From the NCBI RefSeq assembly GCF_050320075.1, contig NZ_CP190018.1: a stretch of 64,000 bases of DNA; one strand, given 5' to 3'. The position numbers and the translations under genes are program-made. Source of the DNA: Escherichia coli. Its GTDB lineage: Bacteria; Pseudomonadota; Gammaproteobacteria; Enterobacterales; Enterobacteriaceae. Below are positions 13,670 to 39,369 of the stretch, one piece after another. The notes below the pieces were generated by a model. The model saw only the letters and a list, made by a program, of their open reading frames with translations, was not told where the DNA came from and ran no database searches. Each line of letters starts with the position of its first letter. Position 1 is the stretch's first letter.

Positions 13670-14818
13670 GTGTCTGACGAGAGCGACGACAAAACAGAAG
13701 CCCCCACACCTCACCGACTAGAAAAAGCGCGGGAAGAGGGGCAAATCCCGCGTTCCCGTGAACTGACTTCACTGCTGATTTTGTTAGTGGGCGTTAGTGT
13801 TATCTGGTTTGGCGGTGTGTCGCTGGCCCGTCGATTGTCGGGCATGCTCTCCGCTGGGCTGCATTTTGATCACAGTATTATCAATGACCCGAATCTGATC
13901 CTCGGGCAAATTATTCTGCTGATCAGAGAAGCCATGCTGGCGCTGCTGCCGCTGATTAGCGGCGTGGTGCTGGTGGCGCTCATTTCTCCGGTCATGCTGG
14001 GAGGGCTGGTATTTAGCGGAAAATCCTTGCAGCCGAAGTTTTCCAAACTCAACCCGCTACCGGGCATTAAACGGATATTCTCGGCTCAGACTGGCGCGGA
14101 GTTGCTTAAGGCAATTTTGAAAACCATCCTGGTTGGCAGCGTGACGGGATTTTTTCTCTGGCATCACTGGCCGCAGATGATGCGCTTAATGGCCGAGTCT
14201 CCGATTACCGCCATGGGTAATGCGATGGATCTGGTAGGGCTATGCGCGCTGCTGGTGGTACTTGGTGTTATTCCGATGGTGGGATTTGACGTCTTTTTCC
14301 AAATCTTCAGCCACCTGAAAAAGCTGCGAATGTCGCGGCAGGATATTCGTGATGAGTTCAAACAAAGCGAAGGCGACCCCCAAGTTAAAGGGCGGATCCG
14401 TCAGATGCAGCGAGCGGCCGCACGGCGTCGGATGATGGCCGATGTGCCGAAAGCGGACGTTATCGTCAATAACCCAACTCACTACTCAGTGGCTTTGCAG
14501 TACGACGAAAACAAAATGAGTGCGCCAAAAGTCGTTGCCAAGGGCGCGGGGCTGGTGGCATTACGCATTCGTGAAATTGGCGCTGAAAATAACGTCCCTA
14601 CGCTTGAAGCGCCGCCGCTGGCGCGAGCGCTGTATCGACATGCGGAGATCGGTCAACAAATCCCGGGTCAACTGTACGCCGCGGTGGCGGAAGTGCTGGC
14701 CTGGGTCTGGCAACTGAAACGCTGGCGTCTGGCTGGTGGACAGCGCCCTGTACAACCTACTCATCTTCCGGTGCCGGAAGCCCTGGATTTTATTAACGAG
14801 AAACCGACCCATGAGTAA
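13670..14818 (+). CDS. flhB: Flagellar export apparatus protein FlhB
   Basis: 382 aa, GTG start, MSDESDDKTEAPTPHRLEKAREEGQIPRSRE.. Confidence 0.95.
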   Translation: MSDESDDKTEAPTPHRLEKAREEGQIPRSRELTSLLILLVGVSVIWFGGVSLARRLSGMLSAGLHFDHSIINDPNLILGQIILLIREAMLALLPLISGVVLVALISPVMLGGLVFSGKSLQPKFSKLNPLPGIKRIFSAQTGAELLKAILKTILVGSVTGFFLWHHWPQMMRLMAESPITAMGNAMDLVGLCALLVVLGVIPMVGFDVFFQIFSHLKKLRMSRQDIRDEFKQSEGDPQVKGRIRQMQRAAARRRMMADVPKADVIVNNPTHYSVALQYDENKMSAPKVVAKGAGLVALRIREIGAENNVPTLEAPPLARALYRHAEIGQQIPGQLYAAVAEVLAWVWQLKRWRLAGGQRPVQPTHLPVPEALDFINEKPTHE

Positions 14819-16889
14819 TCTGGCCGCGATGCTGCGCCTGCCTGCAAACCTGAAATCGACACAATGGCAGATCCTTGCCGGACCGATTTTGATCCTGTTG
14901 ATTTTGTCGATGATGGTGCTGCCACTGCCCGCATTCATACTCGACCTGTTGTTTACCTTCAATATTGCCTTGTCGATCATGGTGTTGCTGGTGGCGATGT
15001 TTACCCAGCGCACGCTTGAGTTTGCTGCGTTTCCGACCATTCTATTGTTTACTACGTTGTTGCGTCTGGCACTTAACGTAGCTTCAACCCGCATCATTTT
15101 GATGGAAGGGCATACCGGCGCGGCGGCGGCTGGGAAGGTGGTCGAAGCGTTCGGTCACTTCCTCGTTGGTGGCAATTTCGCTATCGGTATCGTGGTGTTC
15201 GTCATTCTCGTGATCATCAACTTTATGGTCATTACCAAAGGTGCCGGGCGTATCGCAGAAGTGGGGGCGCGCTTTGTTCTCGATGGTATGCCGGGTAAGC
15301 AGATGGCGATTGACGCCGACCTTAACGCCGGATTGATTGGTGAAGATGAGGCGAAAAAACGCCGCTCCGAAGTGACTCAGGAAGCCGATTTTTACGGCTC
15401 AATGGACGGGGCAAGTAAGTTTGTTCGCGGCGATGCCATCGCCGGGATCCTCATCATGGTCATTAACGTTGTCGGCGGGTTGCTGGTCGGCGTGCTGCAA
15501 CATGGCATGAGCATGGGACACGCCGCGGAAAGTTATACGCTATTGACCATTGGCGACGGTCTGGTGGCACAAATCCCGGCGCTGGTGATTTCTACCGCCG
15601 CGGGGGTCATCGTTACGCGTGTCAGCACCGATCAGGATGTTGGCGAGCAGATGGTGAATCAGCTTTTCAGTAACCCGAGCGTTATGTTGTTAAGCGCCGC
15701 CGTGCTCGGTTTACTCGGCCTGGTGCCCGGAATGCCGAACCTGGTATTTTTGCTGTTCACTGCCGGATTGCTTGGGCTGGCCTGGTGGATCCGCGGACGT
15801 GAACAAAAAGCGCCTGCCGAACCAAAACCGGTAAAAATGGCAGAGAATAATACCGTTGTCGAAGCGACGTGGAACGATGTACAACTGGAAGATTCCTTGG
15901 GAATGGAAGTGGGTTATCGACTGATCCCGATGGTTGATTTCCAACAAGATGGCGAGTTGCTGGGCCGTATTCGTAGTATTCGTAAGAAATTTGCTCAGGA
16001 GATGGGGTTTCTGCCGCCGGTGGTGCACATTCGCGACAATATGGATCTGCAACCTGCACGTTATCGCATTTTGATGAAAGGCGTAGAGATTGGCACTGGC
16101 GATGCCTATCCGGGGCGCTGGCTGGCAATTAACCCAGGTACCGCTGCCGGGACGTTACCTGGTGAGGCGACCGTCGATCCGGCATTTGGCCTGAATGCTA
16201 TCTGGATTGAAAGTGCGCTTAAAGAACAGGCGCAGATTCAGGGGTACACCGTGGTTGAGGCCAGCACGGTGGTGGCAACGCATCTTAACCACCTCATTAG
16301 CCAGCATGCCGCAGAGCTGTTTGGTCGTCAGGAGGCGCAACAGCTGTTGGATCGCGTCGCCCAGGAGATGCCAAAGCTGACGGAAGATCTCGTTCCTGGC
16401 GTCGTCACGCTCACCACACTGCATAAAGTGCTGCAAAATCTGCTCGATGAAAAAGTGCCGATTCGCGATATGCGCACTATTCTCGAAACGCTGGCGGAAC
16501 ATGCGCCCATCCAAAGCGATCCACATGAATTAACCGCCGTCGTGCGCGTGGCGTTGGGACGGGCGATTACCCAGCAGTGGTTTCCTGGCAAAGATGAAGT
16601 TCATGTTATTGGCCTCGATACACCGCTGGAACGTTTGTTGCTACAGGCGTTGCAGGGCGGGGGCGGACTGGAGCCAGGGCTGGCGGATCGTTTACTGGCG
16701 CAAACTCAGGAAGCTCTATCCCGTCAGGAGATGTTGGGTGCGCCGCCAGTTTTATTGGTGAACCACGCGCTGCGACCATTATTGTCTCGCTTCCTGCGCC
16801 GCAGCTTGCCGCAGTTAGTGGTGCTGTCGAATCTGGAACTATCTGATAACCGACATATCCGCATGACGGCGACAATTGGCGGTAAATGA
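14811..16889 (+). CDS. flhA: Flagellar export apparatus protein FlhA
   Basis: 692 aa from MSNLAAMLRLPANLKSTQWQILAGP... Start trimmed from 14736; it overlaps the flhB stop. Confidence 0.94.
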   Translation: MSNLAAMLRLPANLKSTQWQILAGPILILLILSMMVLPLPAFILDLLFTFNIALSIMVLLVAMFTQRTLEFAAFPTILLFTTLLRLALNVASTRIILMEGHTGAAAAGKVVEAFGHFLVGGNFAIGIVVFVILVIINFMVITKGAGRIAEVGARFVLDGMPGKQMAIDADLNAGLIGEDEAKKRRSEVTQEADFYGSMDGASKFVRGDAIAGILIMVINVVGGLLVGVLQHGMSMGHAAESYTLLTIGDGLVAQIPALVISTAAGVIVTRVSTDQDVGEQMVNQLFSNPSVMLLSAAVLGLLGLVPGMPNLVFLLFTAGLLGLAWWIRGREQKAPAEPKPVKMAENNTVVEATWNDVQLEDSLGMEVGYRLIPMVDFQQDGELLGRIRSIRKKFAQEMGFLPPVVHIRDNMDLQPARYRILMKGVEIGTGDAYPGRWLAINPGTAAGTLPGEATVDPAFGLNAIWIESALKEQAQIQGYTVVEASTVVATHLNHLISQHAAELFGRQEAQQLLDRVAQEMPKLTEDLVPGVVTLTTLHKVLQNLLDEKVPIRDMRTILETLAEHAPIQSDPHELTAVVRVALGRAITQQWFPGKDEVHVIGLDTPLERLLLQALQGGGGLEPGLADRLLAQTQEALSRQEMLGAPPVLLVNHALRPLLSRFLRRSLPQLVVLSNLELSDNRHIRMTATIGGK

Positions 16890-26783: not shown

Positions 26784-27140
26784 TCAGAAAAGAGAAGATT
26801 GCTGTGGAATAGCCGGAACTGCTCCGATCTCTGGAAGCGTTTTACGTAAGTCTTCCCACAGGGTATGTACCAGTTCCGGGGCCTGGGCAATATCTGGCGT
26901 ATGTAAAAAAAGATAAGGCGTAGTGGTCTGATGCCACTGCGCTAATTTTTGTAACCAGACCTGAAATAATTCCCGGTTTTGCGTCATATCATCACTACCG
27001 ATAAAACGGATCAGCGGATTTGTCGCCGTCAGTACAGCATGTACCGGAACTTTAGGTTTTTTTCGTTGAGCGTCGCGAATAGCTTCACTGTGTGGACGTG
27101 CTGCATGAACCGGGCGGCTGTCTAAAATCATCAAGGTCTA
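26784..27140 (-). pseudogene. yecE: yecE (DUF72) C-terminal fragment, separated from its N-terminal part by the 12.2-kb insertion
   Basis: ..ILDSRPVHAARPHSEAIRDAQRKKPKVPVHAVL..PQQSSLF continues exactly from the fragment ending ..GVNRVI at 39363-39841. Confidence 0.9.
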
Positions 27141-27157
27141 AATGCACTACATGGGCA
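27125..27157. other. attL (attB left half / AAAATCA core / attP right arm GTCTAAATGCAC)
   Basis: Chromosomal CTGTCT + AAAATCA + element TCAAGGTCTAAATGCAC. See the att reconstruction finding. Confidence 0.75.
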
Positions 27158-27193
27158 CCTAAACATATACATGTGATGTTGAGGTGTTAGAAA

Positions 27194-27209
27194 GGGGGCT
27201 GTTCAGCCC
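27194..27209 (-). terminator. Hairpin downstream of the 306-aa gene
   Basis: GGGGCTG (27194-27200) pairs with CAGCCCC (27203-27209). On the minus strand it is followed by CTTTCT. Confidence 0.5.
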
Positions 27210-27218
27210 CTGATAGAC

Positions 27219-28139
27219 TTAGTAATTATCCCTGACAACTTCATCATATCTTTCAATGAAGGTTAGTTGTTTATTACTTCCATTATAACTATCAACCCAT
27301 TTGTCTACAGCTTCATCGAATAGAAATAAAAAATCCGTATAATTTATATACACTACATTATCATAATATTGGGTTGGGTGACCTCTTTTACATACAGCAA
27401 TACTAAGACGTCTTTCTTTACCCTGAGTAACTTTGTGTGAATTAAGATTAGTCATGTGAAGCAATGAGTTCCTTAATTCATATAATTCGTCGGAAGTTAC
27501 TCCAAGTTTTTGTATATCTGAGTATGTATCTAACCAATTTTGAAAGACTCTTCTTTTGTTTCCAAACTCAATATAAGCTATAGTATCAATAAATGACATT
27601 AATAGCTTGAAGCTTGACAAGTAATGTTTTTTGTTAAACAGAAGCTTTATTGGTTCCATATGGTCATCATTAAGAAGTTCCTTAATGTGAAAACCATCAT
27701 CTTTCATATACTTATCAAGATAGTCTGGCAAGTCTTTTACACCTTCAATGTGATAGTTAGGTGTGTGCTTATTCCTTAATTGCTCTGACATTGATAACTG
27801 AATATCATATTGTAATTTGCCTTTAACAACGGGGGTGACTATAGCTAAAGGGTTTTCAGGTGCATTTTGAGCTTCTAATGCTAATTCAAACGGAGCAAAA
27901 GGATTACCAATCCGCAAATTTGCATTATATCTTTCAAGTGTCAATTTGTCATTTTCTAAAACAGAAGGGTGTATCCCATAAAATAAACGACAAGAAGCTA
28001 AGTCAATCTCCAAATTCCGCTTTAAAAAATCTAATTTTTGCGCATCATCGCCATCATGTTCGTGAGGTACTATTCCGGCATGTGTGATATGAACTCCATC
28101 AGGACTAAAGCAAAATATGTTGTAGATAATCTCTTTCAT
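27219..28139 (-). CDS. Hypothetical accessory protein with a C-terminal HEPN-like RNSLLH (Rx4H) motif; possible Abi-type RNase
   Basis: 306-aa ORF, very AT-rich, at the element edge. R223-N-S-L-L-H228 is encoded at 27456-27473, within a helical C-terminal half. The N-terminus has a His/Asp cluster, HITHAGIVPHEHDGDD. Confidence 0.35.
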   Translation of the reverse strand: MKEIIYNIFCFSPDGVHITHAGIVPHEHDGDDAQKLDFLKRNLEIDLASCRLFYGIHPSVLENDKLTLERYNANLRIGNPFAPFELALEAQNAPENPLAIVTPVVKGKLQYDIQLSMSEQLRNKHTPNYHIEGVKDLPDYLDKYMKDDGFHIKELLNDDHMEPIKLLFNKKHYLSSFKLLMSFIDTIAYIEFGNKRRVFQNWLDTYSDIQKLGVTSDELYELRNSLLHMTNLNSHKVTQGKERRLSIAVCKRGHPTQYYDNVVYINYTDFLFLFDEAVDKWVDSYNGSNKQLTFIERYDEVVRDNY

Positions 28140-28400
28140 ACCATTCTAACCTTCAGTGAAAATAAAGTTTTAACTATCATTAGATTATGAACAATCACAA
28201 TTGGCCTGTAAATAACAGGGCATAAACAGGTTCGTTTAGCTTGATTTTATCACTATAACTGTCTGATTTAACGGTAACTCACCAAGTATACACACAGTAA
28301 TTACACAATCCTGTTATTATGTAACTTATTGAAATATATAAATAATTTTTACATTCTTTGTTTGGGGTAAGCTGTGTAATGTTAGTCGTCCCTCTCCAGA

Positions 28401-28444
28401 CACTATATATAGTGCTATATACAGGACTATATAACGATATATAG
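28401..28444. repeat. CTATATA box array (12-bp period), including the 14-bp palindrome CACTATATATAGTG
   Basis: CTATATA at 28403, 28415 and 28427, plus an inverted copy at 28438-28444. Palindrome at 28401-28414. Confidence 0.7.
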
Positions 28445-28742
28445 ATGTTTGGTCACATGGTATAACTATCAAACCACTTAACGATTTCCTACGTGAAAGT
28501 TAGAAAGTGATAGTTATAGTTACCTTGTCAAATCTTCGTAGTCCCTTCTTAAAAAATCGTGAAAGGTAATCTTGTTATCTATACAGAATCTACGTAGATG
28601 CTTCTTAGTGCGCAAAACAGCTATTATGTTAAAAACGCACTGTATACGTATCAGTACTGATTTATAAGGGTTTTGTGTATTGGCTGATAAGAGGCTATAC
28701 AGCACCTTGAGAGCATGTCTTCTAAGTCATTGACATATAAGG

Positions 28743-28820
28743 TCACAGAAGTTTGTAGCTGTTACAGAGAAAACTGGATAGGACTTCACAGAACTATAAA
28801 ATGTTACAGCTATTGATAGG
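28743..28820 (+). repeat. Two tandem 43-bp units TCACAGAA..GTTACAG..GATAGG
   Basis: TCACAGAA at 28743 and 28786; GTTACAG at 28761 and 28803; GATAGG at 28777 and 28815. Confidence 0.65.
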
Positions 28821-28832
28821 TGAAATCTTCTT

Positions 28833-29050
28833 GATAGATGCTTTGAAGTGTGGTGAAGGCTTTTTGAGGTGGGGCTAAACAGATATCATGAAGAAAGTCA
28901 ATAGTTGATTCGGTTTATCGAATAAACCTCATAGATATTTTAAAATTCTGCAAAGGGGGTCACATAGCTGGTGTGACGGGTACTTAGCAGCTACAGACAT
29001 CTATCAGATATTTTTGAAGATTTTTAGAAGGGGAATTTGAAGAGGGGCTA
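28833..29050 (+). repeat. Two ~45-bp degenerate direct repeats ending in TTTGARGWGGGGCTA, 172 bp apart
   Basis: Copies at 28833-28877 and 29005-29050 align over TTTGAAG..GAAGG..TTTGA(G/A)G(T/A)GGGGCTA. Confidence 0.6.
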
Positions 29051-29249
29051 CTACGATTTTATAAAAATTTTCAGATTCTGAAAAGTTACTGTACAGAATA
29101 TGTACAGATATCTTTAAAGTATCTGTAAAAACTTTTAAGATAAAAGATAGATATCCCAGAAAGGATATCCGTTTAGAAAACCTATTAAGTATCTCTTAAA
29201 AGAGAGTAAACCTTGTCAAGAGTGATTGCAATAAAAATTTTTATTTCTT

Positions 29250-29912
29250 ATGTCAATTGAGTGTATTTTAATCGGGAAACATCATGGGGGTTCTGATTAC
29301 TGGAGAACTCCATTTTTGTTATTTAAGAACTTACACCGTGAATTTATTTTCAGTCTGGATGGTGCTGCAACTAAGCACGATACGTTATTACCCCGCTTTA
29401 CGGATGATATTCACAATCAGTCATGGGATGGTGAACGGGTATTCTGTAACCCACCATACAGCGACACTAAAACATTCCTCGTAAAAGCGTCTGAGGCAGA
29501 TTTATCGGTATTCCTGATACCGTACCGACCCCAAACCATATACTGGCTTAAGCACATCTTCACAAACCCGCTTTGCCATGAAATCCGTATTCTTCATCGT
29601 GCAGTTAAATACCTTCCACCAGCAGGGCATAACAGGCTTACTATTAGGTCGCCGTTTCCAAGTGCAGTCGTTGTTTTTAAAAAAGAACCACGCAGGCATG
29701 AAATTACGCAGATGGTTTGCTGTGCTGATACATTGCTACCGTTAACCATCATTAACAGAGGAGGCTTGAGAGGAAGGCCCACCATTTACCCACCTGAGAC
29801 GCTCGACAGCTTCATAAAACTATACAGGCAAGGCAAACCCATTAAGTGCATTGCAGATGCTCTCAGAATGCCTCTGAGCACGTCATACAGGATTGCTCAA
29901 AGGTTGAGCTAG
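29250..29912 (+). CDS. Phage Dam-family N6-adenine DNA methyltransferase with a C-terminal HTH extension
   Basis: GSDYWRTPFLLF..FSLDGAAT..W.GERVFCNPPYSD matches the phage N6A-MTase family (DxWxTP, LDxAA, NPPY). Residues ~170-220 (GRPTIYPPETLDSFIKLYRQGKPIKCIADALRMPLSTSYRIAQRL) look like a resolvase-type HTH. Confidence 0.75.
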   Translation: MSIECILIGKHHGGSDYWRTPFLLFKNLHREFIFSLDGAATKHDTLLPRFTDDIHNQSWDGERVFCNPPYSDTKTFLVKASEADLSVFLIPYRPQTIYWLKHIFTNPLCHEIRILHRAVKYLPPAGHNRLTIRSPFPSAVVVFKKEPRRHEITQMVCCADTLLPLTIINRGGLRGRPTIYPPETLDSFIKLYRQGKPIKCIADALRMPLSTSYRIAQRLS

Positions 29913-30016
29913 AATTCTCATAAATATGGTCATTTACAAGACAGGTGATTTAGATATTAAGAGGTATCCCTGTGAACAATAAATGACCAATCAGTAATTA
30001 TCCTGTGAAATAATTG

Positions 30017-30045
30017 TTGCAATTTATAATCACACATGGTATAGT
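30017..30045 (+). promoter_or_regulatory. Sigma-70 promoter with extended -10
   Basis: TTGCAA (30017-30022), 17 nt spacer containing TGg, then TATAGT (30040-30045). Confidence 0.6.
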
Positions 30046-30052
30046 TTCATAG

Positions 30053-30255
30053 TGGACTGATAAAAAAGTTCATGTCTTGAAGTGGTAACACTTGGGGAGG
30101 TGTCAGATGATTGACGTATATTAACCTCTCATTCATGGTAATACCTCAGCGTTTTAATCATCGTACTGTTTCAGGCATGGACTTCTTTATCAGTCCATCA
30201 ATCCCCCAGATATTTTAATCACACAGGCTAATCGGTTTTATCCGGTTGGCCTTTT
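30053..30255 (+). ncRNA. Structured ~200-nt leader or small RNA ending in an intrinsic terminator just upstream of rep
   Basis: 22-nt closing helix 30053-30074 / 30176-30197 (20 WC pairs, 1 GU, 1 AC). GNRA hairpin at 30080-30093. Hairpin at 30095-30130. Terminator stem 30226-30235 / 30242-30251 followed by TTTT. Confidence 0.5.
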
Positions 30256-30276
30256 CACGTATGAGGTAATTTATGA

Positions 30277-31245
30277 ATGAAAAAAGAAACTAATGCTTTT
30301 ATTATGGTAGATAAACGAGTTGCACAATTCCCTAAAACATTAAAGCCAATTGACCGCTTGGTATATTTCACTATGCTGGATGGTGCTGATTATTACGAAT
30401 CTAAGTTCGGGAGATACGCACCAAGTATTGACTATTTGATGGTTATGTCTGGTGCTACACGTAATACAGTTATTGATTCACTTAAGAGACTTGAGTCACA
30501 CAGACTTATCGAAAAGACCAATGTAAAGGGTCAGCAAAGTATTTTTAAAGTATTCACGTTGGATGAGCGTCCAGAGGTCTTATCAGAACCTACCCTTGAT
30601 GAGCGTCGTAGAGCTAAATTATCAGGTCAACCAGAATCTGACAGTAACCCAACCAAAAATTGGTTACCTACCCAACCAGAATTTGGTTACCTACCTAACC
30701 AGAATTTGGTTACATGTAATACTGAATATAAAGACAAAAATATAAATACTGAAGAAGAAAGACTAAAAGGGAACTTTGAAGAAGAATCTCTTAAGAAGGG
30801 AGCTTCGCTCTGTGATTCACATGAATGTGATATTAAAGAAGATGACTTTCTTTCTTTGGATGAATTAAATGATTTTCTCTCTATGAATGAATCTGGCCTT
30901 GATAGTGAAGCTACTAAAGAGGCTGTTAAAAAGGAAGATAAAATCTCTGATGTGAATATCGATAGTGACCATAAAAACACACAGTGCCCCGCCACTGATG
31001 ATGAGATGGACCCCTTCGATGATTACCTTGATGAAGAGTCAGAGCGTGAAAAAGCCATTAAGAGGGTAGAGAAGAAAAAGAGATTCGAGCTTGCAAGACA
31101 AAAGAACAAAGTATCGGGTTTAGACCCATTCGATGACAGTGACGATGATGACTTTTCTTTCACACCAAGAAAGAAACAAACTCAGGATGACAAGAAGCAA
31201 AAAATTAAACCGAAGATGTATTTTGCTGGTGGAGGTATGCGCTAA
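30277..31245 (+). CDS. Replication initiator (N-terminal winged-HTH, acidic C-terminal tail)
   Basis: 322 aa. The N-terminus ..IDRLVYFTMLDGADYY..YLMVMSGATRNTVIDSLKRLESHRLIEK.. resembles HTH_36-type Rep or lambda-O-like initiators. Iterons lie inside the ORF. SD GAGGT at 30263-30267. Confidence 0.55.
   Translation: MKKETNAFIMVDKRVAQFPKTLKPIDRLVYFTMLDGADYYESKFGRYAPSIDYLMVMSGATRNTVIDSLKRLESHRLIEKTNVKGQQSIFKVFTLDERPEVLSEPTLDERRRAKLSGQPESDSNPTKNWLPTQPEFGYLPNQNLVTCNTEYKDKNINTEEERLKGNFEEESLKKGASLCDSHECDIKEDDFLSLDELNDFLSMNESGLDSEATKEAVKKEDKISDVNIDSDHKNTQCPATDDEMDPFDDYLDEESEREKAIKRVEKKKRFELARQKNKVSGLDPFDDSDDDDFSFTPRKKQTQDDKKQKIKPKMYFAGGGMR
30629..30719 (+). repeat. Iteron array (candidate ori): three 23-bp units plus one degenerate unit, each with an AACCAnAAnTTGGTT palindrome, followed by an AT-rich tract
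   Basis: Units start at 30651, 30674 and 30697 (AACCA(A/G)AATTTGGTTACCTACC). Degenerate unit at 30629-30650. AT-rich tract at 30715-30760. Confidence 0.65.
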
Positions 31246-31541
31246 TGAAAGAATATCACGGTGAAAAGAGATACAAAGATTACCTGTTAAAGCGTTATAG
31301 CATTTCTCGTGAAGGCCACTTAATGAAGGATACTCACGGGGAAGTTTACCGGATTAGACCGAAGAAAGAAGGGAGGGATTATTTCTTTTACGATGGTGTG
31401 ACAGATTTAAAGATTGATGCTTTGAAGTTTGCGGCGCTGTATCATTATGATATCTGGGACTCAGTCCACCAGCTACGATTAAAAGACGGTGACCCCGGTA
31501 ATCTGAGGGCCACCAATATTATCAAGGGAAAGTGCCGGTAA
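31245..31541 (+). CDS. Hypothetical 98-aa protein, weakly NUMOD4/HNH_3-like (degenerate)
   Basis: ATGA overlap with the rep stop; GGAGG SD. YSISREGHL.. and VHQLRLKDGDPGNLRATNI loosely recall homing-endonuclease-type DNA-binding modules. Confidence 0.3.
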   Translation: MKEYHGEKRYKDYLLKRYSISREGHLMKDTHGEVYRIRPKKEGRDYFFYDGVTDLKIDALKFAALYHYDIWDSVHQLRLKDGDPGNLRATNIIKGKCR

Positions 31542-31550
31542 GTCCACCAG

Positions 31551-31727
31551 CTATTTATTTATTGAAATCTCTATCTCAACACGAAGAAGTTTAAGTCGAA
31601 TTGTAAGCTTTGTCTTTTTTGTAATGACTCGATTCATAACGCAAAACACCAATAGCACAATAAATACCGCAAAGCCCAACGAGCTAAAACGATGAGATTC
31701 AATAATTGCTGTGAAAAAATCATGCAT
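31551..31727 (-). CDS. Small single-pass membrane protein (58 aa)
   Basis: MHDFFTAIIESHRFSSLGFAVFIVLLVFCVMNRVITKKTKLTIRLK... AAGGA SD 6 nt upstream. Own promoter at 31778-31806 on the minus strand. Confidence 0.45.
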   Translation of the reverse strand: MHDFFTAIIESHRFSSLGFAVFIVLLVFCVMNRVITKKTKLTIRLKLLRVEIEISINK

Positions 31728-31777
31728 TAATTTTCCTTTTGCGAAAGGAAACAGCACCTGTATCAGCCCCTATAACC

Positions 31778-31828
31778 ATAATATCATGTAAATGAGATGT
31801 TGACAATATGTTAAATAAATGTTATGAT
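31778..31828. promoter_or_regulatory. Back-to-back divergent sigma-70 promoters with overlapping -35 hexamers
   Basis: Plus strand: TTGACA (31800-31805), 17 nt, TATGAT (31823-31828). Minus strand: TTGTCA (complement of 31801-31806), 17 nt, TATTAT (complement of 31778-31783). Confidence 0.65.
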
Positions 31829-31864
31829 TGTAGTATGAGTAAGAGATTTAAGGAGATTTTTACA

Positions 31865-32155
31865 ATGACTCACACAGTTACGCGCCTTTTGCCAGAGGCA
31901 TTTGAACGACTGGCAGCAATCAAAGCCAAATATCCCGATATGAAGCACACAGCGCTTGTTGGAGAGCTTTTAAAAGAGTCGGTAACCCTGACCCCTTTCG
32001 ATAACGTTAAGGGCGTTGCAGAGGGTTCTAAGGCCATCAGAATCACAACGGACCAACTGGAACTACTCAAAGCACAGTCCGCAGTAGCAGGTTGCTCAAT
32101 GATTCAGGTGTTAAGCGCAAAGGTCCATCAATTAGCGGATAGGCTGGGGGTTTAA
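31865..32155 (+). CDS. Tandem ribbon-helix-helix (RHH) protein, candidate switch repressor
   Basis: 96 aa. Two strand-helix-helix patterns (TVTRLLPEAFERLAAIKAKY..HTALVGELLKES and AIRITTDQLELLKAQSAVAG.SMIQVLSAKVHQLADRL). AAGGAG SD at 31850-31855. Confidence 0.4.
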   Translation: MTHTVTRLLPEAFERLAAIKAKYPDMKHTALVGELLKESVTLTPFDNVKGVAEGSKAIRITTDQLELLKAQSAVAGCSMIQVLSAKVHQLADRLGV

Positions 32156-32580
32156 TGCTATGCACATTTGATTATCATGCGTTTTATCGCCATAGAGGCC
32201 ACCTTGTCCGTGAGAATAGCGGAACATGGAAAGATTTAACTCGTAATGCTGAACCCTTCACACACCAGCAATTAAAATCCCGCTTCTCCAGATGGAAGAA
32301 TGCACCAGCAGATACTGGTGATTTTGAGATTATCCATACCTTCGATTATGCCTCAGAAGATGACCTTCACGATGCAATTAAGCTGATTGAAGACTTCAAT
32401 ACCTCAGAAGATGTGGATGGTGACAAATATAAATCCCGTGGTAACCGCTATAACCGTGATGATATCACTCAGGCCATAAATGCTGGTCAATCTCAGCGAT
32501 ACATTACAGAAAAATATGGTATTTCACGGAGACAGTATTTCTACGTTAAATCATTGATTAATAAAGACAATTCAAAATAA
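32155..32580 (+). CDS. Hypothetical 141-aa protein with C-terminal HTH
   Basis: TAATG overlap with the upstream gene. The C-terminus DDITQAINAGQSQRYITEKYGISRRQYFYVKSL resembles a resolvase/terminase-small-type HTH. Confidence 0.4.
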   Translation: MLCTFDYHAFYRHRGHLVRENSGTWKDLTRNAEPFTHQQLKSRFSRWKNAPADTGDFEIIHTFDYASEDDLHDAIKLIEDFNTSEDVDGDKYKSRGNRYNRDDITQAINAGQSQRYITEKYGISRRQYFYVKSLINKDNSK

Positions 32581-32741
32581 CCATCTCAGTAACGGTAGAA
32601 TGCACTTTACAGGCAGAGTTGCACCTTAATTTGATAAATTACCTTACCAGCCAGTGCAACTCCCTCTGTAACCCGCATGATTACTGGTCTCAGAATGGCT
32701 ATTTTAAGAGGTCTGAGATGTGTTTTGTAGGAGATTTAAAA

Positions 32742-33065
32742 ATGAACAACTTCCCATTACAGATTTTCGTTGATAACGACACCGCTATGATGGTGCAAAG
32801 CTTCAGTGATGCAGGTATTAGCATTGATTTTGACAGGCTGTTAAAGCTAATGGCTGATAATGAAGAAAACGTCTCTGACTTTATTCACTCGGTGGAGTTT
32901 AACGAGCCTCGAATGATGTTACCAATTACAGACAGTAATATGAAAAGATTGGTTATTGAGCAAACGAACAAATACAGTATTTCCCCAGAGCAATTTTTGA
33001 AAGGTGCTGTGACAATCCTGTACAGCGATAATATTTTGGTTACGGATTCCGTGAGGGTTCACTAA
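32742..33065 (+). CDS. Hypothetical 107-aa protein
   Basis: ATG at 32742 preceded by GTAGGAG. The longer ORF-track start (32619) lies in a structured non-coding leader. Confidence 0.45.
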   Translation: MNNFPLQIFVDNDTAMMVQSFSDAGISIDFDRLLKLMADNEENVSDFIHSVEFNEPRMMLPITDSNMKRLVIEQTNKYSISPEQFLKGAVTILYSDNILVTDSVRVH

Positions 33066-33142
33066 TGGGCTTAATAATTGCTTGGACGTTGCTTGGCTTA
33101 TTTGTTGGTTGCTGGGTAGGCAGCACAGTAAATAGAAATTGA
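33065..33142 (+). CDS. Possible 25-aa hydrophobic peptide MGLIIAWTLLGLFVGCWVGSTVNRN
   Basis: TAATG stop-start overlap with the upstream ORF. GAGGG lies 7 nt upstream. One predicted TM helix. Confidence 0.3.
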   Translation: MGLIIAWTLLGLFVGCWVGSTVNRN

Positions 33143-33166
33143 TGTTACCAATCTGTTAAAAAGCTG

Positions 33167-33195
33167 TTGACAAATAACCTTAAGCATGAGATGAT
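33167..33195 (+). promoter_or_regulatory. Candidate promoter, paralogous to the 31800 promoter
   Basis: TGTTGACAA..17 nt..GATGAT, compared with TGTTGACAA..17 nt..TATGAT at 31798-31828. Confidence 0.4.
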
Positions 33196-33636
33196 GGTAA
33201 TAGGGGAGAGCAACTCTCTCTTATTTTTCTTTCAAAATAATCCGATGGATGGATATTCTGAATTGGAAAGGTGCAATGCTTTTCGTCATGGCCTTTCAGT
33301 TTAGTCTGAGAGGCTATCTCAAAAAGTGCTTAATCATTCATTGAACCCTTTACAGCTTTGCCCTAACTCATGATTAGGGCTTTCTTTAAGAGTTTTTAAA
33401 CAGAGCTTTTAAAGAAAGTTTTTCCTGAAACTTCGTTAACGTTAAAGCAAACCTTCAAAGCCCTTCACAGATGAGGATGATTCCATGAATATCCGAATCA
33501 CCTATGTTTAGGGCTTTTTTCAGCTTTTAAAAAGCATACTTGGCAAACGCCTTTTAAGCCTCTTCTAAGTTCGAGGATGTCAGGTGTGCTTTTTAAAAAC
33601 TGAAACATAAATTATCTTAGAAGAGGAAAGGTATTA

Positions 33637-34341
33637 ATGGCTATCCGTGATGAAAATGAAATGATTATTGAAAACAAACCAAGTGCACTTGATATTCACG
33701 AATTAAGTTTGCGTGAATCTTTTGATAGAGCTTGGCGGGAATCACACGAAGTAAATAAAGGTCCATATATTCCACCAGAACCACTCGAGATTCCAAGAGT
33801 TGAAATTGATTTTTCTATGAACGAACGGTGTGAACTTGATTTGAAGTTGAAGCTACAACGCCGATATTTCCAAGCTATTAAAGACTCTCAAGAAGCAATG
33901 AGAAGTGTTTATGAGAAAATTCAGTCCAAGCTTGAAGACGAAATTGACGAAATGGCTATTTTGATGGAGCTTCAAACCAATCCTTATGCTTATTTCTCTC
34001 GACTAGACCGTGACGGTTGGGGGTATGACCCTGTAGAGATTGGTAAAGTGATTGCAGATTTACCAGAAGGTCAAAGGGTTATTCGTACGGAAAGGGCCAT
34101 CAGAGCGCCACATCAACTGTCTCTAATTGTTGCTGATAAATCACAAGCTGAGCTTGAAGAAATTGCCAAAGAGAAACTGATGAAAGCAAGAGAAAATGAG
34201 ATTAATTTGCTGAAATCAAGACTGGCTAAGCTGATTAGTGACCATCAAGCGCTGGCTAAGGAGTACCGTCAAGAGTTGGCACAGATTATCAGCTTCAATG
34301 ATTTTCTGAGTGTTCCACGAGAATTTAGCAAGGCTGTTTGA
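33637..34341 (+). CDS. Hypothetical 234-aa coiled-coil-rich protein
   Basis: Good SD (GAGGAAAGG). Charged heptad-like C-terminal third. No family recognised. Confidence 0.5.
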   Translation: MAIRDENEMIIENKPSALDIHELSLRESFDRAWRESHEVNKGPYIPPEPLEIPRVEIDFSMNERCELDLKLKLQRRYFQAIKDSQEAMRSVYEKIQSKLEDEIDEMAILMELQTNPYAYFSRLDRDGWGYDPVEIGKVIADLPEGQRVIRTERAIRAPHQLSLIVADKSQAELEEIAKEKLMKARENEINLLKSRLAKLISDHQALAKEYRQELAQIISFNDFLSVPREFSKAV

Positions 34342-34364
34342 TTATGAATTAAAAGAGGTGATTA

Positions 34365-34583
34365 ATGTATGAAGACCGTTTGGAAACTATCAAGGCAGTT
34401 TGTGAAAAACTTAAAAACCAACCACGTAAACCAAAAACGGTAAAGAGTAAGCATCAGCCTGTCACCTCAAACAGCAAAATAAAGATTCGCAAAATTCCTT
34501 CGTGGTGCATTGACCGTATTCCGGTTGGTTCAAGAATTATTCGTGAAGATGGTGATTATCATTGGGTATCAGTTGTTGGTTAG
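34365..34583 (+). CDS. Hypothetical 72-aa basic protein
   Basis: AAGAGGTG SD. No family recognised. Confidence 0.45.
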   Translation: MYEDRLETIKAVCEKLKNQPRKPKTVKSKHQPVTSNSKIKIRKIPSWCIDRIPVGSRIIREDGDYHWVSVVG

Positions 34584-34598
34584 TTAGTAAAAATCTAC

Positions 34599-34638
34599 GG
34601 GAGAGATTATCGAGTGATATCGGTAGCTCTCCCTTTTT
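34599..34638 (+). terminator. Intrinsic terminator immediately upstream of the tape-measure gene
   Basis: GGGAGAG (34599-34605) pairs with CTCTCCC (34627-34633), with an inner helix, followed by TTTTT. Confidence 0.7.
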
Positions 34639-34671
34639 CGTATATGAACACTTAAGAGGTGAAAAATATGA

Positions 34672-36804
34672 ATGAGCAAATTCACAGTTGATAGTTTTAT
34701 CGTTGAATTAAGCTTCAATGAAAACATTATTAAGGGCTTGCAAAGAGTTGAAAAGGCAGCTTTGCAGTCAGCACAAAGAATTGAAAAGAACCTAAATAAA
34801 GGTTTCAGGATTAATACAAAGCAGCTTGATAGTAATTTAACGGCTTCTTTAGGGCAGCTTGAAAGGAAGTTTAATAAGGCCTTTGACAAGATTGAACAGA
34901 GAGCAAGAAATACTAAAGCTTTCCAGTTTACCACCAGATTTAATGACACTGTTAATCCTCCAAAACAACCGAGACAGCCACGAATTAGCGGCAACAGAGC
35001 AATCACAGCAGCTTACTCAGCGAATATGAGCAAGCTAAAAGGCTTTGACCCTATTTTGCAGAAATACATCAAATCTCAGTTTTACGGGCTATCTGCTAAA
35101 GCCGGTTCAATGGATTCTTCAAAATTCAATGAGAAGTTAGCTCAGTTAAACGCTTCAGTCAGAGAAGCAATTGCTAAAGCCAGAGGTCATACATCCACCA
35201 GCATTAATGGTGACAGAGCAGCTAATAGTCTTGATAACCTGTCTTCAGCAGCAGTTAAAACAGCAGGTGCATTTATCTCAATGCAGGCTGTATTAGCCAG
35301 TTATCAGAAGATTATGGAAATTGGTTTACAGCGTGCAAGTGCTGAACGTTCAATTGATTTCGTATTTGATAAAGATGCAGGTCAAGTAAAAGAGTTCACA
35401 AAGTCATTAGCTCAAACAACGGGTTTAGATATCGCTGAACTGCAATCACAGTTTGCTGGTTTTGGTGCTTCAGCTAAAGAGTCTATGGGCATTCAAGGTT
35501 CTGAAGAACTTTTTAAAAATATGATTGGCTATGCTCGTCTGATGGGGAGAAGTGAAGAAGAGATTAAGCGAGCACTGACAGCATTATCACAGATGGCTGG
35601 TAAGGGTCAGGTTATGGCTGAAGAGCTTAAGGGGCAATTAGCTGAAGCTGTTCCTGGTATGGTTCAGGTATTCGCTAAAGCAACCGGAAGGAATGAACAA
35701 GAGCTATTTGATGCCATGAAGAAGGGGGCTTTAAAATCTGCCGATACTCTTCAGAAGGTCACTCAGGAACTGAATAAACAAATCACCGCTAAAGGTGGCT
35801 GGAAAGCTATTTCAGAAAGTACACAGGCACAACTAGGGAACCTGAAAAACTCTTGGAATACCACGCTTGATAGTATCTTCAGAGGTTCTGAAGATGGTCT
35901 GCAAGATTTTACAAGAAGCTTAACAACGCTTTTAAACGCTCTTGGTGGAAGTGGTAAAAGTCTTGGTGAATCTCTTGGTAGTCTCATGACTTCTATGTCA
36001 CATGGTGTCGATTCATTGACTGATATCAGCTACAGGGTAAGAGCATTCTTCGATGAGGTGACATTAGCTTACCGTTCACTAAATGACACTCAGAAAAAAA
36101 TTGTTGATGGTTTATCTGATGGGTTAATTGATGGTTTGAAGATGCTTGCCGTAGCTGTTACTGCTCAAAAGGCTGCAAATGTAGCTGGAGGCTTGTTAAA
36201 CCTTGCAAATGCTGTTACTTCATTCGGTGATGCTGTTAATAAAGCTAAAGCTGGCAAGGCTGGTTCTTCAGGTGGTGCGCTAAATAAAGTTGGTAGAGTT
36301 GTTCTTTATGCTGAGTTGGTGAACTTTGCTCTTGATAATTTAAACCCTGAAGCGGCTAAGAATCCGAACTTACACCAATCAGGTATTGGAACAGAGACAA
36401 ACTTCAACCCTGAATACAAAGGCGATTCATCTAAACCAAACCAAATTAATGATGGATGGGCTAAGATTGGTAGTTCTATCGCTGACTGGTTTAATGGTGC
36501 GGCTAATAAAATTGCTAACTTCCAAGACCCGATGAATAACTTTGTTAATAACACACAATCAACTCCACCAGCTATCACAGGTGACATGGTTAATAGCAAT
36601 GCTCAACTTGCTATGGCTGTATCAGAGTTAGGAAGAAAGGTAGACGCTTTAACAGTAGAAGCTAAGAAGCCTTTATCAGTTAATATCAAAGGTGAAGCAA
36701 TTGTTAGACCGGATGAACCAGCTTTCTTTACTTTCAATCAATCAGCTAATGACCAGTTCACGCAGGATATGCTCTTAAGTTCAAGCTATCCAGAGGAAGA
36801 ATGA
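34672..36804 (+). CDS. Phage tail tape measure protein
   Basis: 710 aa. The segment ..RALTALSQMAGKGQVMAEELKGQLAEAVPGMVQVFAKATGRNEQELFDAMKKGALKS.. matches the conserved tape-measure core (lambda-type tape_meas domain). Long helical, Gly/Ala-rich remainder. Confidence 0.8.
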   Translation: MSKFTVDSFIVELSFNENIIKGLQRVEKAALQSAQRIEKNLNKGFRINTKQLDSNLTASLGQLERKFNKAFDKIEQRARNTKAFQFTTRFNDTVNPPKQPRQPRISGNRAITAAYSANMSKLKGFDPILQKYIKSQFYGLSAKAGSMDSSKFNEKLAQLNASVREAIAKARGHTSTSINGDRAANSLDNLSSAAVKTAGAFISMQAVLASYQKIMEIGLQRASAERSIDFVFDKDAGQVKEFTKSLAQTTGLDIAELQSQFAGFGASAKESMGIQGSEELFKNMIGYARLMGRSEEEIKRALTALSQMAGKGQVMAEELKGQLAEAVPGMVQVFAKATGRNEQELFDAMKKGALKSADTLQKVTQELNKQITAKGGWKAISESTQAQLGNLKNSWNTTLDSIFRGSEDGLQDFTRSLTTLLNALGGSGKSLGESLGSLMTSMSHGVDSLTDISYRVRAFFDEVTLAYRSLNDTQKKIVDGLSDGLIDGLKMLAVAVTAQKAANVAGGLLNLANAVTSFGDAVNKAKAGKAGSSGGALNKVGRVVLYAELVNFALDNLNPEAAKNPNLHQSGIGTETNFNPEYKGDSSKPNQINDGWAKIGSSIADWFNGAANKIANFQDPMNNFVNNTQSTPPAITGDMVNSNAQLAMAVSELGRKVDALTVEAKKPLSVNIKGEAIVRPDEPAFFTFNQSANDQFTQDMLLSSSYPEEE

Positions 36805-36967
36805 TTTCTTATATATCCGTGTGCTACGTGATTTCTTCTGAACAGATATACCCACTAAAAATTATTTTTTACGTAGCTCACGCTTAACAGAGAAAATACT
36901 TATATATCAAAGGCTTGGTTAAAAATGATTAAAATACACTAAGCCTTTGAAATCAAAGGAGAATTTA

Positions 36968-37741
36968 ATGATTTACTCTAATCAGATTCGTTACAGTGGT
37001 AAAGATGGCGTTTACTTTCATCTACAAGGCCAGCCAGATAATTTCTTGTCACTATCAGCTACTGAGAACATGGAATTTGACAGCCCTATGATGGTTACCA
37101 CTCAAAATATGCAATCAGGGCAGACTGTCACAGATAATGTAATGCGTTCACCCAGAACTATTTCAATCAGTGGTGTGGTTGTAGTTGGTGAATCCGGTAG
37201 TATCCTTATCTCAAGAGATAATAAGCTGGTGGAAAACTTCATAGACACTCTTGAAAACTGGCGTGACCAGAAGCAAATTATCTCAGTTGTCTGTAAAGAT
37301 GGTATTAAGATTGACGACTCAATTATTACAAACTTTAAAGCCTCTAAAGATGTTGGTATTGCCAATGGTCTTAGAATCCAATTAACTTTTCAGGAAATTA
37401 ACTTTAAAGCTATTGTGGGTCAGACTGATATCTCGGCTGCGACCGGAAGGACTTCTACCACAAGTGATGGTGGTGCTACCAGTAAAAAGAATACAGGGAA
37501 CACTACGACAAGCTTAGGTAACGGTATGTTGATGTGTCAGGAGCTATATAATCGCTCTACGAGTGAACTTACTAATGAGCAACTTCAAGCCCGTATCAAT
37601 TGTGGTAAAAATGTCAGAGTTAAGAACGGAAAAAGCACCTTCTCAGATGCCGCTAATGAGCAAGCTTCAAAGGTGCTTAATAATGCTGGTACAGGTAGTA
37701 CTTTGAAGAAGTATTCTGTTAATCCTAACAAGCGATACTGA
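36968..37741 (+). CDS. Tail-tip or distal-tail-like protein (family usually encoded just after tape-measure genes)
   Basis: 257 aa from [14 protein letters not shown].. (AAGGAG SD at 36956). The pattern [30 protein letters not shown] .. [12 protein letters not shown] resembles Dit-like tail proteins. Confidence 0.4.
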
Positions 37742-37755
37742 CGATAGAATCTCAA

Positions 37756-39279
37756 CTATATGATAACCTCATCAACATCTATTAAACCCCTCTCAGTGAC
37801 TTCAGAAAGCGACTGTATAGCCTCTGTAACGTTGTCTGAGGGGTTTTCTGTTATTGGTAAGGTGATTGCTTTACCGTTGTGAAAAGTTACTTTACAGCGA
37901 CGTTTAGCAGTATTTAAAACGACCTCTTTAACAGCACTTTTGATTATCAGTTGTGCTTCAATCCTTCCCGCCTTTGTAGTCAAGTCACAATCAGACAAAC
38001 AACCCACATCAATAGATTTAAGGCGTTGTGTCTCCTTCTCGATATCCGCATCAACTTGTGATAGCTCATTCTTTAGTTGTCTTAGTTTGCTGGTAATAGC
38101 GGACAAGTCTTCAATTTCAAGTGATAGCTGTACCAGCTTTTCAATATTGCTTGAGATGTGTTCACGGTGTAGCTTCAGTGTGTCTATGGTATTCGTCATA
38201 TCGCTATCAAATCGGTCAAGACGAGATAGCAGGGCAAGCAATGTACCATCGGTTTGCTTACGTGAAAGTCCTTTAGCACTACAACGGTTTTCATTACGAA
38301 GAGGACAACGATAAATCCCGTTTCTTGTATCGCTAAAGCCTGTGATAATCAAAGCATGACCACATTCAGAACAACGGATAACACCTTTGAAAAGATTCAC
38401 AGCCATTGGCTTATCTGAAGCAGGTTTTCTACCGTAACGAGCATATGATAGTTGTTGAACTTTGTAGAATGTTGTTTCATCTATAATTGCAGGATAATAA
38501 CCAGATATCTCCTCACAGCCTTTAGGTGTGAAGTAACCAATTACAGAGCGATTCTTCAAAAGGTCTTGCACTGAGGTTTGACCAAACTTACCTGCTTTGT
38601 ACTGGTTAAGCGTCTGGTGACCTTCAGCATTAAGAGTTCTGACAATCTCCCAGATAGACTTACCCTCTAACCGTAGCTGAAAGCACCTCTTCACAGTCTC
38701 CACTTTCTCAGGTATCACAGAGAAGCTTTTACGGTCATCATTAAGCTTAAGCCATGCAGGACAACGCCTAGAAATCTTGATACCAGCTTTAGCAGCTTCT
38801 TTCTTTGCATCCCATGCAGCTTGTATACGCTCAGCCTTACGTAATGATTCCTCATGCGCCCTTTGCATTATCAAAATGCTTTTAATCAGAGCTAACGGGT
38901 CTTTAAGAGATTCCCTTGTGTAATGTTCACCATCGGACAGGGTGACTACATCTACACCAGAGCGAAGAATGTTTCTGAGTAGCTCACTTGCTTGGTCTAC
39001 GTCCTGACGTGAGAGACGGTCTAAACTCTCGATTAGTAGTGTATCACCAGCTTTAACAAGCCCTTTCTCGATAGCGGTTAAAAAGTCACCTAAGCCACCT
39101 TTCAAGTGCTTACCAGTGAACCCGCTAACGCCTAAATCACGAAAAGTAAGGGATTCATCCAGATAGTACTCAGGATGAGCCTTAAGCCAATCAGTGACCA
39201 TCTTAGCCTGTCGTCTTAATGAGTCGCCTCTGGATTGCTTCTCAGATGAAAACCGGATGTAACTGATTGCACGTTTCAT
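37756..39279 (-). CDS. Large serine recombinase (integrase)
   Basis: 507 aa. N-terminal resolvase catalytic domain (AISYIRFSSEKQSRGDSLRRQ), recombinase domain, Cys-rich zinc ribbon (CSECGH..YRCP..C), and C-terminal coiled coil. Confidence 0.9.
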   Translation of the reverse strand: MKRAISYIRFSSEKQSRGDSLRRQAKMVTDWLKAHPEYYLDESLTFRDLGVSGFTGKHLKGGLGDFLTAIEKGLVKAGDTLLIESLDRLSRQDVDQASELLRNILRSGVDVVTLSDGEHYTRESLKDPLALIKSILIMQRAHEESLRKAERIQAAWDAKKEAAKAGIKISRRCPAWLKLNDDRKSFSVIPEKVETVKRCFQLRLEGKSIWEIVRTLNAEGHQTLNQYKAGKFGQTSVQDLLKNRSVIGYFTPKGCEEISGYYPAIIDETTFYKVQQLSYARYGRKPASDKPMAVNLFKGVIRCSECGHALIITGFSDTRNGIYRCPLRNENRCSAKGLSRKQTDGTLLALLSRLDRFDSDMTNTIDTLKLHREHISSNIEKLVQLSLEIEDLSAITSKLRQLKNELSQVDADIEKETQRLKSIDVGCLSDCDLTTKAGRIEAQLIIKSAVKEVVLNTAKRRCKVTFHNGKAITLPITENPSDNVTEAIQSLSEVTERGLIDVDEVII

Positions 39280-39340
39280 TGTTCACCTCACCAATAGCAG
39301 TTGGGCTTGTACCAACCCCTAGATTGTATCGCTTTAGATG

Positions 39341-39369
39341 GTGTATTTAAACGTGTCTAATAAAAATCA
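39341..39369. other. attR (attP left arm GTGTATTTAAAC / AAAATCA core / attB right half follows)
   Basis: Element GTGTATTTAAACGTGTCTAAT + AAAATCA, then chromosomal CCCGATTAACG. Confidence 0.75.

Follow-up and report, generated by a model that had tools for sequence, protein, structure and literature searches.

Non-coding DNA resembling a genome end of Felix O1-like phages in a family of Escherichia coli chromosomal islands

In P4/P2 and in phage-inducible chromosomal islands (PICIs) of the cos type, the satellite carries a copy of the site at which the helper forms its DNA ends and is packaged by the helper terminase. The phage-inducible chromosomal island-like element (PLE) of Vibrio cholerae, whose helper is ICP1, possesses an 89-bp mimic that is 71% identical to the ICP1 pac region, includes a 14-bp identical core, and was found experimentally to be required for transduction. 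The phage-inducible chromosomal minimalist islands (PICMI) of the Vibrionaceae, which are satellites of virulent phages, have no capsid-remodelling genes and are packaged as concatemers of helper-genome length. Here, we analyze a 64,000-nt stretch of Escherichia coli DNA (the window; all coordinates are positions in it) and describe a non-coding region, positions 28140-29249, of a mobile chromosomal island. The region contains DNA homologous to a genome end of the Felix O1-like phages (Ounavirinae), virulent myoviruses that are classic tools for typing Salmonella and that are widely employed in cocktails targeting Salmonella, E. coli, and Shigella for biocontrol or therapy. Both these phages and T7/T3 have exact terminal repeats. 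Those of T7/T3 are short, and adjacent sequences direct both cutting and the duplication of the repeat; no sequence or protein relationship to T7 exists. In Felix O1, a small terminase has yet to be identified.

The reading that we favor, and consider probable on balance, is that the region would be the cis-acting hub of an integrative element behaving like a satellite of Felix O1-like phages. By homology, the island resembles PLE in its small size, its chromosomal location, its large serine recombinase, and its presumed virulent-myovirus helper, and in possessing a short non-coding stretch, found by BLASTN, that resembles the helper packaging region and is conserved among the satellites. This likeness concerns the type of element and the non-coding mimic, not protein comparison. 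The two systems differ in that ICP1 is a pac/headful phage whereas the genomes of Felix O1-like phages end in exact terminal repeats of ∼580 bp, in that the island described here encodes a helper-like tape measure protein (TMP) and Dit-like protein, and in that the PLE mimic is experimentally proven whereas the present one comes from sequence comparison. P4 and the cos-type PICIs have helpers with cohesive ends, unlike the direct terminal repeats of the presumed helper here. Their hallmarks are also missing: when the island proteins were compared with Pfam, PHROGs, and NCBIfam, none of the tyrosine integrase, AlpA, and primase-replicase genes typical of P4-like elements, PICIs, and capsid-forming PICIs (cfPICIs) was found, and neither were TerS/Ppi/Rpp, capsid, or Sid/Psu/Delta genes. 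With PICMI, the island shares its small size, a virulent (presumed) helper, and the lack of recognized capsid-remodelling genes, the concatemers being in this case a matter of arithmetic only. PICMI differ in having random (headful) ends and in that no helper-like packaging sequence was found in them, and the genes, integration site, and hosts are different as well.

Homology to the right end of the phage terminal repeat

An earlier, sequence-only reading of the region had described it as free of convincing open reading frames (ORFs), dense in repeats, and similar in look to pac/cos sites or multi-operator control regions. That look is supported by homology, to a terminal-repeat end and to a divergent promoter, and not by the density of the repeats. 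A blastn search with the region as query, covering 50,697 phage records (2.3 Gb), matched 222 of them, with a best E value of 3e-8. The matches were confined to unannotated DNA of Felix O1-like phages (Felixounavirus and Mooglevirus), apart from one record with another label. This record, GU169904.1 (Staphylococcus phage SA1), matches the terminal-repeat region of Felixounavirus with 92% identity at positions 135884-136582, which suggests that it is chimeric or contaminated with Felix O1-like DNA.

The Felixounavirus match lies in a 1.6-kb gene-free gap between convergent operons, and this gap contains the direct terminal repeat (DTR) of the phage genome. In phage Pr103Blw, a 581-bp DTR is annotated at both ends of the record. 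Phage D4, which is ∼91% identical here and was characterized independently by different authors, likewise has a DTR of 581 bp, and its ends are the same, namely ...AAATGCTA/GCCCCC... and ...GGGCTACC/AAGCAG... (a slash marks the terminus), and three further phage records begin at the identical base. The DTR of UAB_Phi87 was determined as 608 bp by Bal31 digestion and run-off sequencing, and the two end motifs are 614 bp apart in this phage. Two other candidates were rejected: the break in the RPN213 record as a physical end, being located ∼80 bp past the DTR end, and the "repeat_region" features of phage finno as a DTR, being short internal repeats.

Positions 28934-29096 of the window align with positions 2472-2635 of the reconstructed Pr103Blw junction, across the right DTR end at 2522/2523 (pairwise E = 3e-13). 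The equivalent of the phage end in the island is located at approximately 28984/28985 (GGGTACT/TAGCAG). The island segment is 163 bp long, is 67 to 72% identical to its phage counterparts, and contains invariant blocks of 9 to 12 bp. When 4 phages were aligned together with 10 island variants, four common blocks (B1 to B4) separated by diverged spacers emerged: GATATTTTA..TGCAAAGGGGGT in block 1; GGG(C/T)TAC..A.CAG, which is the phage end itself, in block 2; CAGATATTTT in block 3; and TTTATAAAAA..CTGAA.A.TTAC in block 4. Across 19 distinct island variants, B2 is present with at most one mismatch in 17/19, B1b in 15/19, and B4 in 14/19 (13/19 exactly). The blocks held in common with the phages are the conserved parts of the segment across the variants while the spacers between them diverge, which is the pattern of selection on sites.

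This pattern bears on the possibility that the region has no dedicated function, its phage-like pieces being leftovers of recombination and the near-invariant core described below a "linker" homogenised by recombination between co-resident islands. Gene exchange between the island and Felix O1-like phages is clear, the modules on either side of the core have been swapped among variants, and up to 5 islands coexist in one genome, as such a history would predict. Leftovers would, however, not be expected to retain the phage-common blocks amid diverged spacers, to include a core conserved above any island protein gene, or to be kept in every variant examined, and we regard this explanation as improbable.

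Fainter resemblances accompany the terminal-repeat match. The phage gap has its own CTATATA triple box, ACTATATAGTACTATATAACTATATAG, a weaker echo whose similarity to the island boxes reaches E = 0.002; CTATATA/TATATAG words number 5 versus 0.1 expected in the island non-coding region and 7 versus 0.11 expected in the phage gap. The motif ACAGG(G)CATAAACAGG is another echo, short and possibly due to chance; in the leader of the region, the motif AAATAACAGGGCATAAACAGG (28209-28231) bears a similarly short, possibly accidental resemblance to the phage sequence AAATACAGGCATAAACAGG located ∼150 bp to the right of the DTR end. Within a second boundary-like motif at the right edge of the core, AACAGAT alone is well conserved among the variants. 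A speculative counterpart of the left DTR end (28535-28558) is partly kept in four variants; its Smith-Waterman score of 21 against the phage left end is not significant compared with shuffled sequences (16.5 ± 2, maximum 24). Overall, the island region is like the Felixounavirus gap in being gene-free, repeat-rich, and GATC-free and in the right-DTR-end blocks, CTATATA triple boxes, and CAGATAT words that they have in common, whereas the island lacks the TGTTAAG/CTTGTTA array and a recognizable left end and has its own invariant core instead.

A second phage-like block lies between the terminal-repeat match and the methyltransferase gene. Window positions 29132-29189 are 86% identical over 58 bp to an element in 253 Felix O1-like (Ounavirinae) phage records. 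In phage finno, this element sits in a 620-bp divergent region that separates a tRNA-side operon from an operon leading into the tail genes. Colinearity between island and phage spans ∼140 bp (29110-29240), stops at the start codon of the methyltransferase gene, and ends just before the position of the phage promoter TTGACT-17-TACCAT. Two of the four GATATC sites singled out in the sequence-only reading belong to an inverted repeat in this block, GATATCC-N6-GGATATC (29150-29169); CTTTTAAG-type words and ACCTTGTCAAG are also present in the block.

Proteins and base composition connect the island to the same phages. The Dit-like protein is 64 to 70% identical in amino acid sequence, over its full length, to Felixounavirus and Mooglevirus proteins encoded just after the TMP gene, and each of its 299 matches comes from a Felix O1-like phage of enterobacteria or Erwinia. 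The best matches of the island TMP, at 30 to 39%, are in the same phages. Island and phages alike are ∼38% GC and GATC-free: the 12.2-kb island has no GATC versus ∼51 expected, the host flanks within the window hold 236, and none is present in 21.7 kb of sampled phage DNA (loci L002, L003, L004, and L007) versus ∼80 expected. The tetranucleotide CTAG is depleted in the island too (5 versus 23). Phage-like non-coding DNA is confined to the 28140-29249 region when this is compared with the other gap in the island, at 33066-33640. Genes for its own TMP and Dit-like protein are unusual for a small island, and they suggest that the island alters or contributes to helper tails.

A near-invariant core among variable repeats

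The sequence-only reading missed both the tie to a group of helper phages and the best-conserved part of the region, a 250-bp core. Across the 19 variants, conservation of the core is 0.88 to 1.0 per 25-bp bin, with 8/10 bins at or above 0.93, compared with 52 to 80% in the flanks. It exceeds that of every island protein gene (75 to 97% at the amino acid level for Dit, 50 to 79% for TMP, and 67 to 82% for p148). The core is invariant in all variants, with or without the O-like replication initiator encoded downstream, and because it is present regardless of this initiator, it is not the initiator's private origin.

In a broader form, the core and the flanking repeats would be an origin for the island's own initiator or for the helper or host replisome, and the homology to the phage gap would reflect a shared origin. 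Direct and inverted repeats are indeed dense in the region, the initiator gene is located 1 kb downstream in the window variant, the phage gap between convergent operons could house an origin besides the DTR, and ori and pac of PLE are close together. Yet most variants lack the initiator, whereas every one of them has the invariant core. The 43-bp unit occurs in two copies and the 7-bp boxes in three, and no iteron array (at least three phased 17- to 22-bp copies) is present. The significant phage homology, moreover, falls exactly at the DTR end and not at any mapped origin. An origin is unlikely on this evidence.

The very high nucleotide conservation of the core, with no coding signature, would also fit one or several genes for non-coding RNA, which might act on helper or island transcripts as a regulator or in antisense. 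A sigma-70-like site is located within the core (28775-28802), and terminator-like hairpins are present at 29089-29107 and 29149-29170; across the region, such hairpins are enriched (3 versus 0.5 expected). Sigma-70-like sites are not, numbering 5 versus 7.2 expected. Rfam searches returned nothing relevant at E ≤ 1 over the island, two relatives and the phage gap likewise yielded no relevant match at gathering score, the folding energy of the core equals that of shuffled sequences on both strands (z = -0.20 and -0.05), and compensatory change was found in 0/78 predicted pairs. An RNA gene is thus a poor candidate, and quite an improbable one, although an RNA of this kind may be unstructured and act by base pairing. 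Hidden small proteins were rejected as well: ORFs of 33, 31, and ∼60 aa persist in the core across variants, one of the three being missing in variant L016, and substitutions in them fall mainly at codon positions 1 and 2.

Because no phage counterpart and no RNA, coding, or initiator-origin signal was detected, the core looks like a DNA-level element, putatively a protein-binding site specific to this island family. Three contigs (L013, L021, and L026) break inside or beside the core, which is consistent with multiple copies of the core in these genomes rather than with a physical end of the DNA.

The repeats of the region are real but of unequal standing. No ORF in 28140-29249 exceeds 61 aa, in agreement with the earlier reading, and every motif that it listed was found in the region, two classes being looser than described. 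CTATATA occurs at 28403, 28415, and 28427 and TATATAG at 28438, with the palindrome CACTATATATAGTG at 28401. The arms of an 11-nt inverted repeat (28461-28471 and 28508-28518) match perfectly, the family AATAACAGG / CCTGTTATT / ATAAACAGG is as described, and GATATC sites are located at 28882, 29107, 29150, and 29164, with the palindrome TCTCTTAAAAGAGA at 29192. The TGTACAGA pair is present one base away from the positions first given, at 29090 and 29101. Two tandem 43-bp units had been proposed; their anchors TCACAGAA, TGTTACAG, and GATAGG are exact, but the whole units are only ∼55% identical. Likewise, the two ∼45-bp repeats turned out to be loose copies with ∼70% identity across 30 nt. Tandem Repeats Finder (TRF) reported the 12-bp CTATATA array and 10- to 11-bp arrays and nothing else. 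Relative to 300 dinucleotide shuffles, direct 7- and 8-mers recur above expectation (z = 3.2 and 2.7), and inverted 7- to 10-mers are clearly enriched (z = 3.9 to 4.8).

Comparison of the island variants separated the repeat families that are kept from those that are lost. CTATATA box 2 (17/19) and box 3 (15/19), the CTATACAG words, and the anchor words of both 43-bp units (16 to 19 of the 19) are kept. By contrast, the CACTATATATAGTG palindrome is found in 2/19 variants, the left arm of the inverted repeat at 28461 in 1/19, and the two ∼45-bp repeats in 1/19 and 5/19. The most eye-catching repeats are not the functionally strongest parts of the region.

The island family and its distribution

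The island cuts yecE into two pseudogene halves, and its boundaries were taken from the GC profile and from junction words. A 306-aa gene on the minus strand is followed by the non-coding region, the genes for the methyltransferase, the O-like initiator, and small unknown proteins, and then those for TMP, the Dit-like protein, and the serine recombinase (Table 1). Three relatives studied in full share this architecture and are located at yecE or between yciI and tonB. A second type of serine recombinase (L010, 22602-24122), which is 33 to 35% identical, goes with the yciI/tonB integration site.

Table 1. Features of the island and of its non-coding region (window coordinates; a slash within a sequence marks a terminus or its proposed equivalent)
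Feature	Position	Strand	Remarks
Mobile island	∼27125..39365, ends approximate		∼12.2 kb, 35-42% GC, no GATC, in yecE (DUF72)
Variable leader	28140..28321		Kept only in variants whose matches begin at query position 65
Sigma-70-like promoter of 306-aa cargo gene	28212-28184	-	Predicted site, in variable leader
CTATATA boxes	28403..28444	+	∼12-bp spacing; boxes 2 and 3 kept across family
Weak left-boundary-like candidate TTCGTAG/TCCCTTCTTAAAAAATC	28535..28558	+	Compare phage ATGCTA/GCCCCCTTAACATTTTC; speculative
Near-invariant 250-bp core	28622..28871		Contains both 43-bp units (28743-28828)
Second boundary-like motif GGGGCTAAACAGATATC	28870..28886	+	Compare phage DTR end GGGCTACC/AAGCAGATAT
DTR-right-end homolog	28934..29096	+	Matches Felixounavirus concatemer-junction segment spanning right DTR end
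Divergent-promoter homolog	29110..29240	+	Felix O1 gene 40/41 type; directly upstream of methyltransferase gene
N6-adenine DNA methyltransferase (PF05869), C-terminal helix-turn-helix (HTH)	29250..29912	+	First gene of rightward set
O-like replication initiator	30277..31245	+	phrog_270/428/678
Tape measure protein (TMP)	34672-36804	+	Order TMP-Dit as in Felix O1-like phages
Dit-like protein	36947-37741	+	Follows TMP gene
Large serine recombinase (integrase)	37756..39279	-	Resolvase, Recombinase, Zn_ribbon_recom domains; right island end

Gene content varies around this plan. A cargo slot separates the left end from the non-coding region; it holds the 306-aa gene in the window (27219-28139) and a 277-aa gene in L012 (12161-12994) and is empty in L010 and L011. 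The 306-aa gene had been called defense-like, a label that finds no backing in PADLOC models, Pfam, or NCBIfam, none of which it matches. The O-like initiator was seen only in the window and in L023, most variants being without it. In L010 (14594-16276), L011 (∼14353-15930), and L012 (∼13907-15558), a second ORF-free stretch of ∼1.6 kb replaces the initiator; it is GATC-free, 85 to 89% conserved among the three, and without an Rfam match or a significant match in the phage loci compared. A gap of 570 bp (∼33066-33640) upstream of the p234-p72-TMP-Dit set is unannotated, is 81 to 90% conserved among variants, and has no match in the phage collection. The TMP gene of L011 is interrupted by IS2.

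The methyltransferase gene is carried by some variants only and is missing from many that keep the non-coding region; L011 has an AP2/HNH-type gene in its position. An origin of the methyltransferase in Felix O1-like phages (Ounavirinae) was rejected by sequence comparison. The enzyme is a Dam-family methyltransferase-HTH fusion, though the island that encodes it is free of GATC. The sequence-only reading had listed partition centromeres among the things that such phased repeats look like, and had speculated that methylation of a repeated site is involved, as in the Dam control of P1 pac. The repeats and the adjoining adenine methyltransferase gene are what such a reading has in its favor. Control through GATC is excluded because the region and the whole island contain none, no ParA/ParB-type domain was found among the island proteins scanned, and the methyltransferase is missing from many variants that retain the region. 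The centromere or Dam-controlled pac is accordingly the least credible of the explanations, and a very unlikely one, although methylation may occur at another target site.

Of 5426 complete E. coli genomes, 549 (∼10%) contain relatives of the non-coding region, a single genome having as many as 5. All are chromosomal, and none is annotated. A search of plasmids found no relatives, and species-representative genomes contained no relative with the methyltransferase and none with a 24-mer of the core. The islands are an active family of integrative elements rather than a decaying prophage.

A putative satellite of Felix O1-like phages

The homologies are observed, as are their placement with respect to the mapped phage ends, the conservation of the region, and the kinship of island and phages. 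From these, we infer by sequence comparison how the island may be induced, cut, and packaged. Infection by a Felix O1-like phage would induce the island, aided by its copy of a helper-derived promoter/operator (29110-29240), which would turn on the rightward genes downstream of it. The induced island would then replicate, and the helper terminase or end-forming machinery would recognize the copy of the right DTR end at 28934-29096 and cut and package the replicated DNA. Packaging would plausibly proceed as multimers of about helper-genome length, since 7 × 12.2 kb is ∼86 kb, near the 86 to 89 kb of the helper genomes; this is arithmetic only. The core, which is placed where the interior of the terminal repeat would be, would most likely serve as a satellite-specific recognition element for packaging or replication.

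Several observations weigh against the satellite reading. Fuzzy matching and local alignment found no significant homolog of the left DTR end in the island, so that only the right end is matched; this counts against the reading because both ends are needed to make terminal repeats. The dominant TGTTAAG/CTTGTTA array of the phage is neither copied nor enriched in the island. The identity of the right-end match is modest (67 to 72%), with several differing positions around the cut site, and the core, the best-conserved part of the region, had no phage counterpart in the blastn search of the phage collection, so the role assigned to it is a guess. The promoter-like block is found only in variants with the methyltransferase gene. 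No gene for capsid size or terminase redirection was recognized in the scans of the island proteins, and virome and metagenome contigs contained integrated copies or fragments without terminal overlap and no excised, circular, or DTR-bounded form. Finally, what has been mapped for Felix O1-like phages is their genome ends rather than the signals that their terminases recognize.

Nevertheless, none of the rival explanations accounts for significant homology located exactly on a phage genome end and conserved in the manner of a site. A more detailed version of the satellite reading is that the region is the packaging and induction cassette of an undescribed E. coli satellite family exploiting Felix O1-like myoviruses, that the core forms the inside of a terminal repeat belonging to the satellite itself, that the DNA is packaged as helper-length multimers of ∼7 units, and that the island supplies its own TMP and Dit to tails built by the helper. 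We offer this combination tentatively, as possible but rather doubtful when all of its parts are taken together.

Mimicry of packaging sites by satellites is already known; copying of an exact terminal-repeat end from a virulent myovirus, as proposed here for E. coli, would be new and, if the reading is true, the first such case. In the literature searched, from which papers in subscription journals may be missing, we came across no report of a satellite with Felix O1-like phages or Ounavirinae as helpers. A satellite of this kind would be expected to be cut near 28984/28985, to depend on 28934-29096, and to show infection-induced transcription from 29110-29249. It would open a way to study DNA recognition and cutting in phages with exact terminal repeats, and would provide a tractable E. 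coli counterpart of the PLE-ICP1 system of Vibrio. An island carried by approximately 1 in 10 complete E. coli genomes could, if it is such a satellite, blunt phage treatments, move cargo genes from strain to strain, and contaminate phage preparations.

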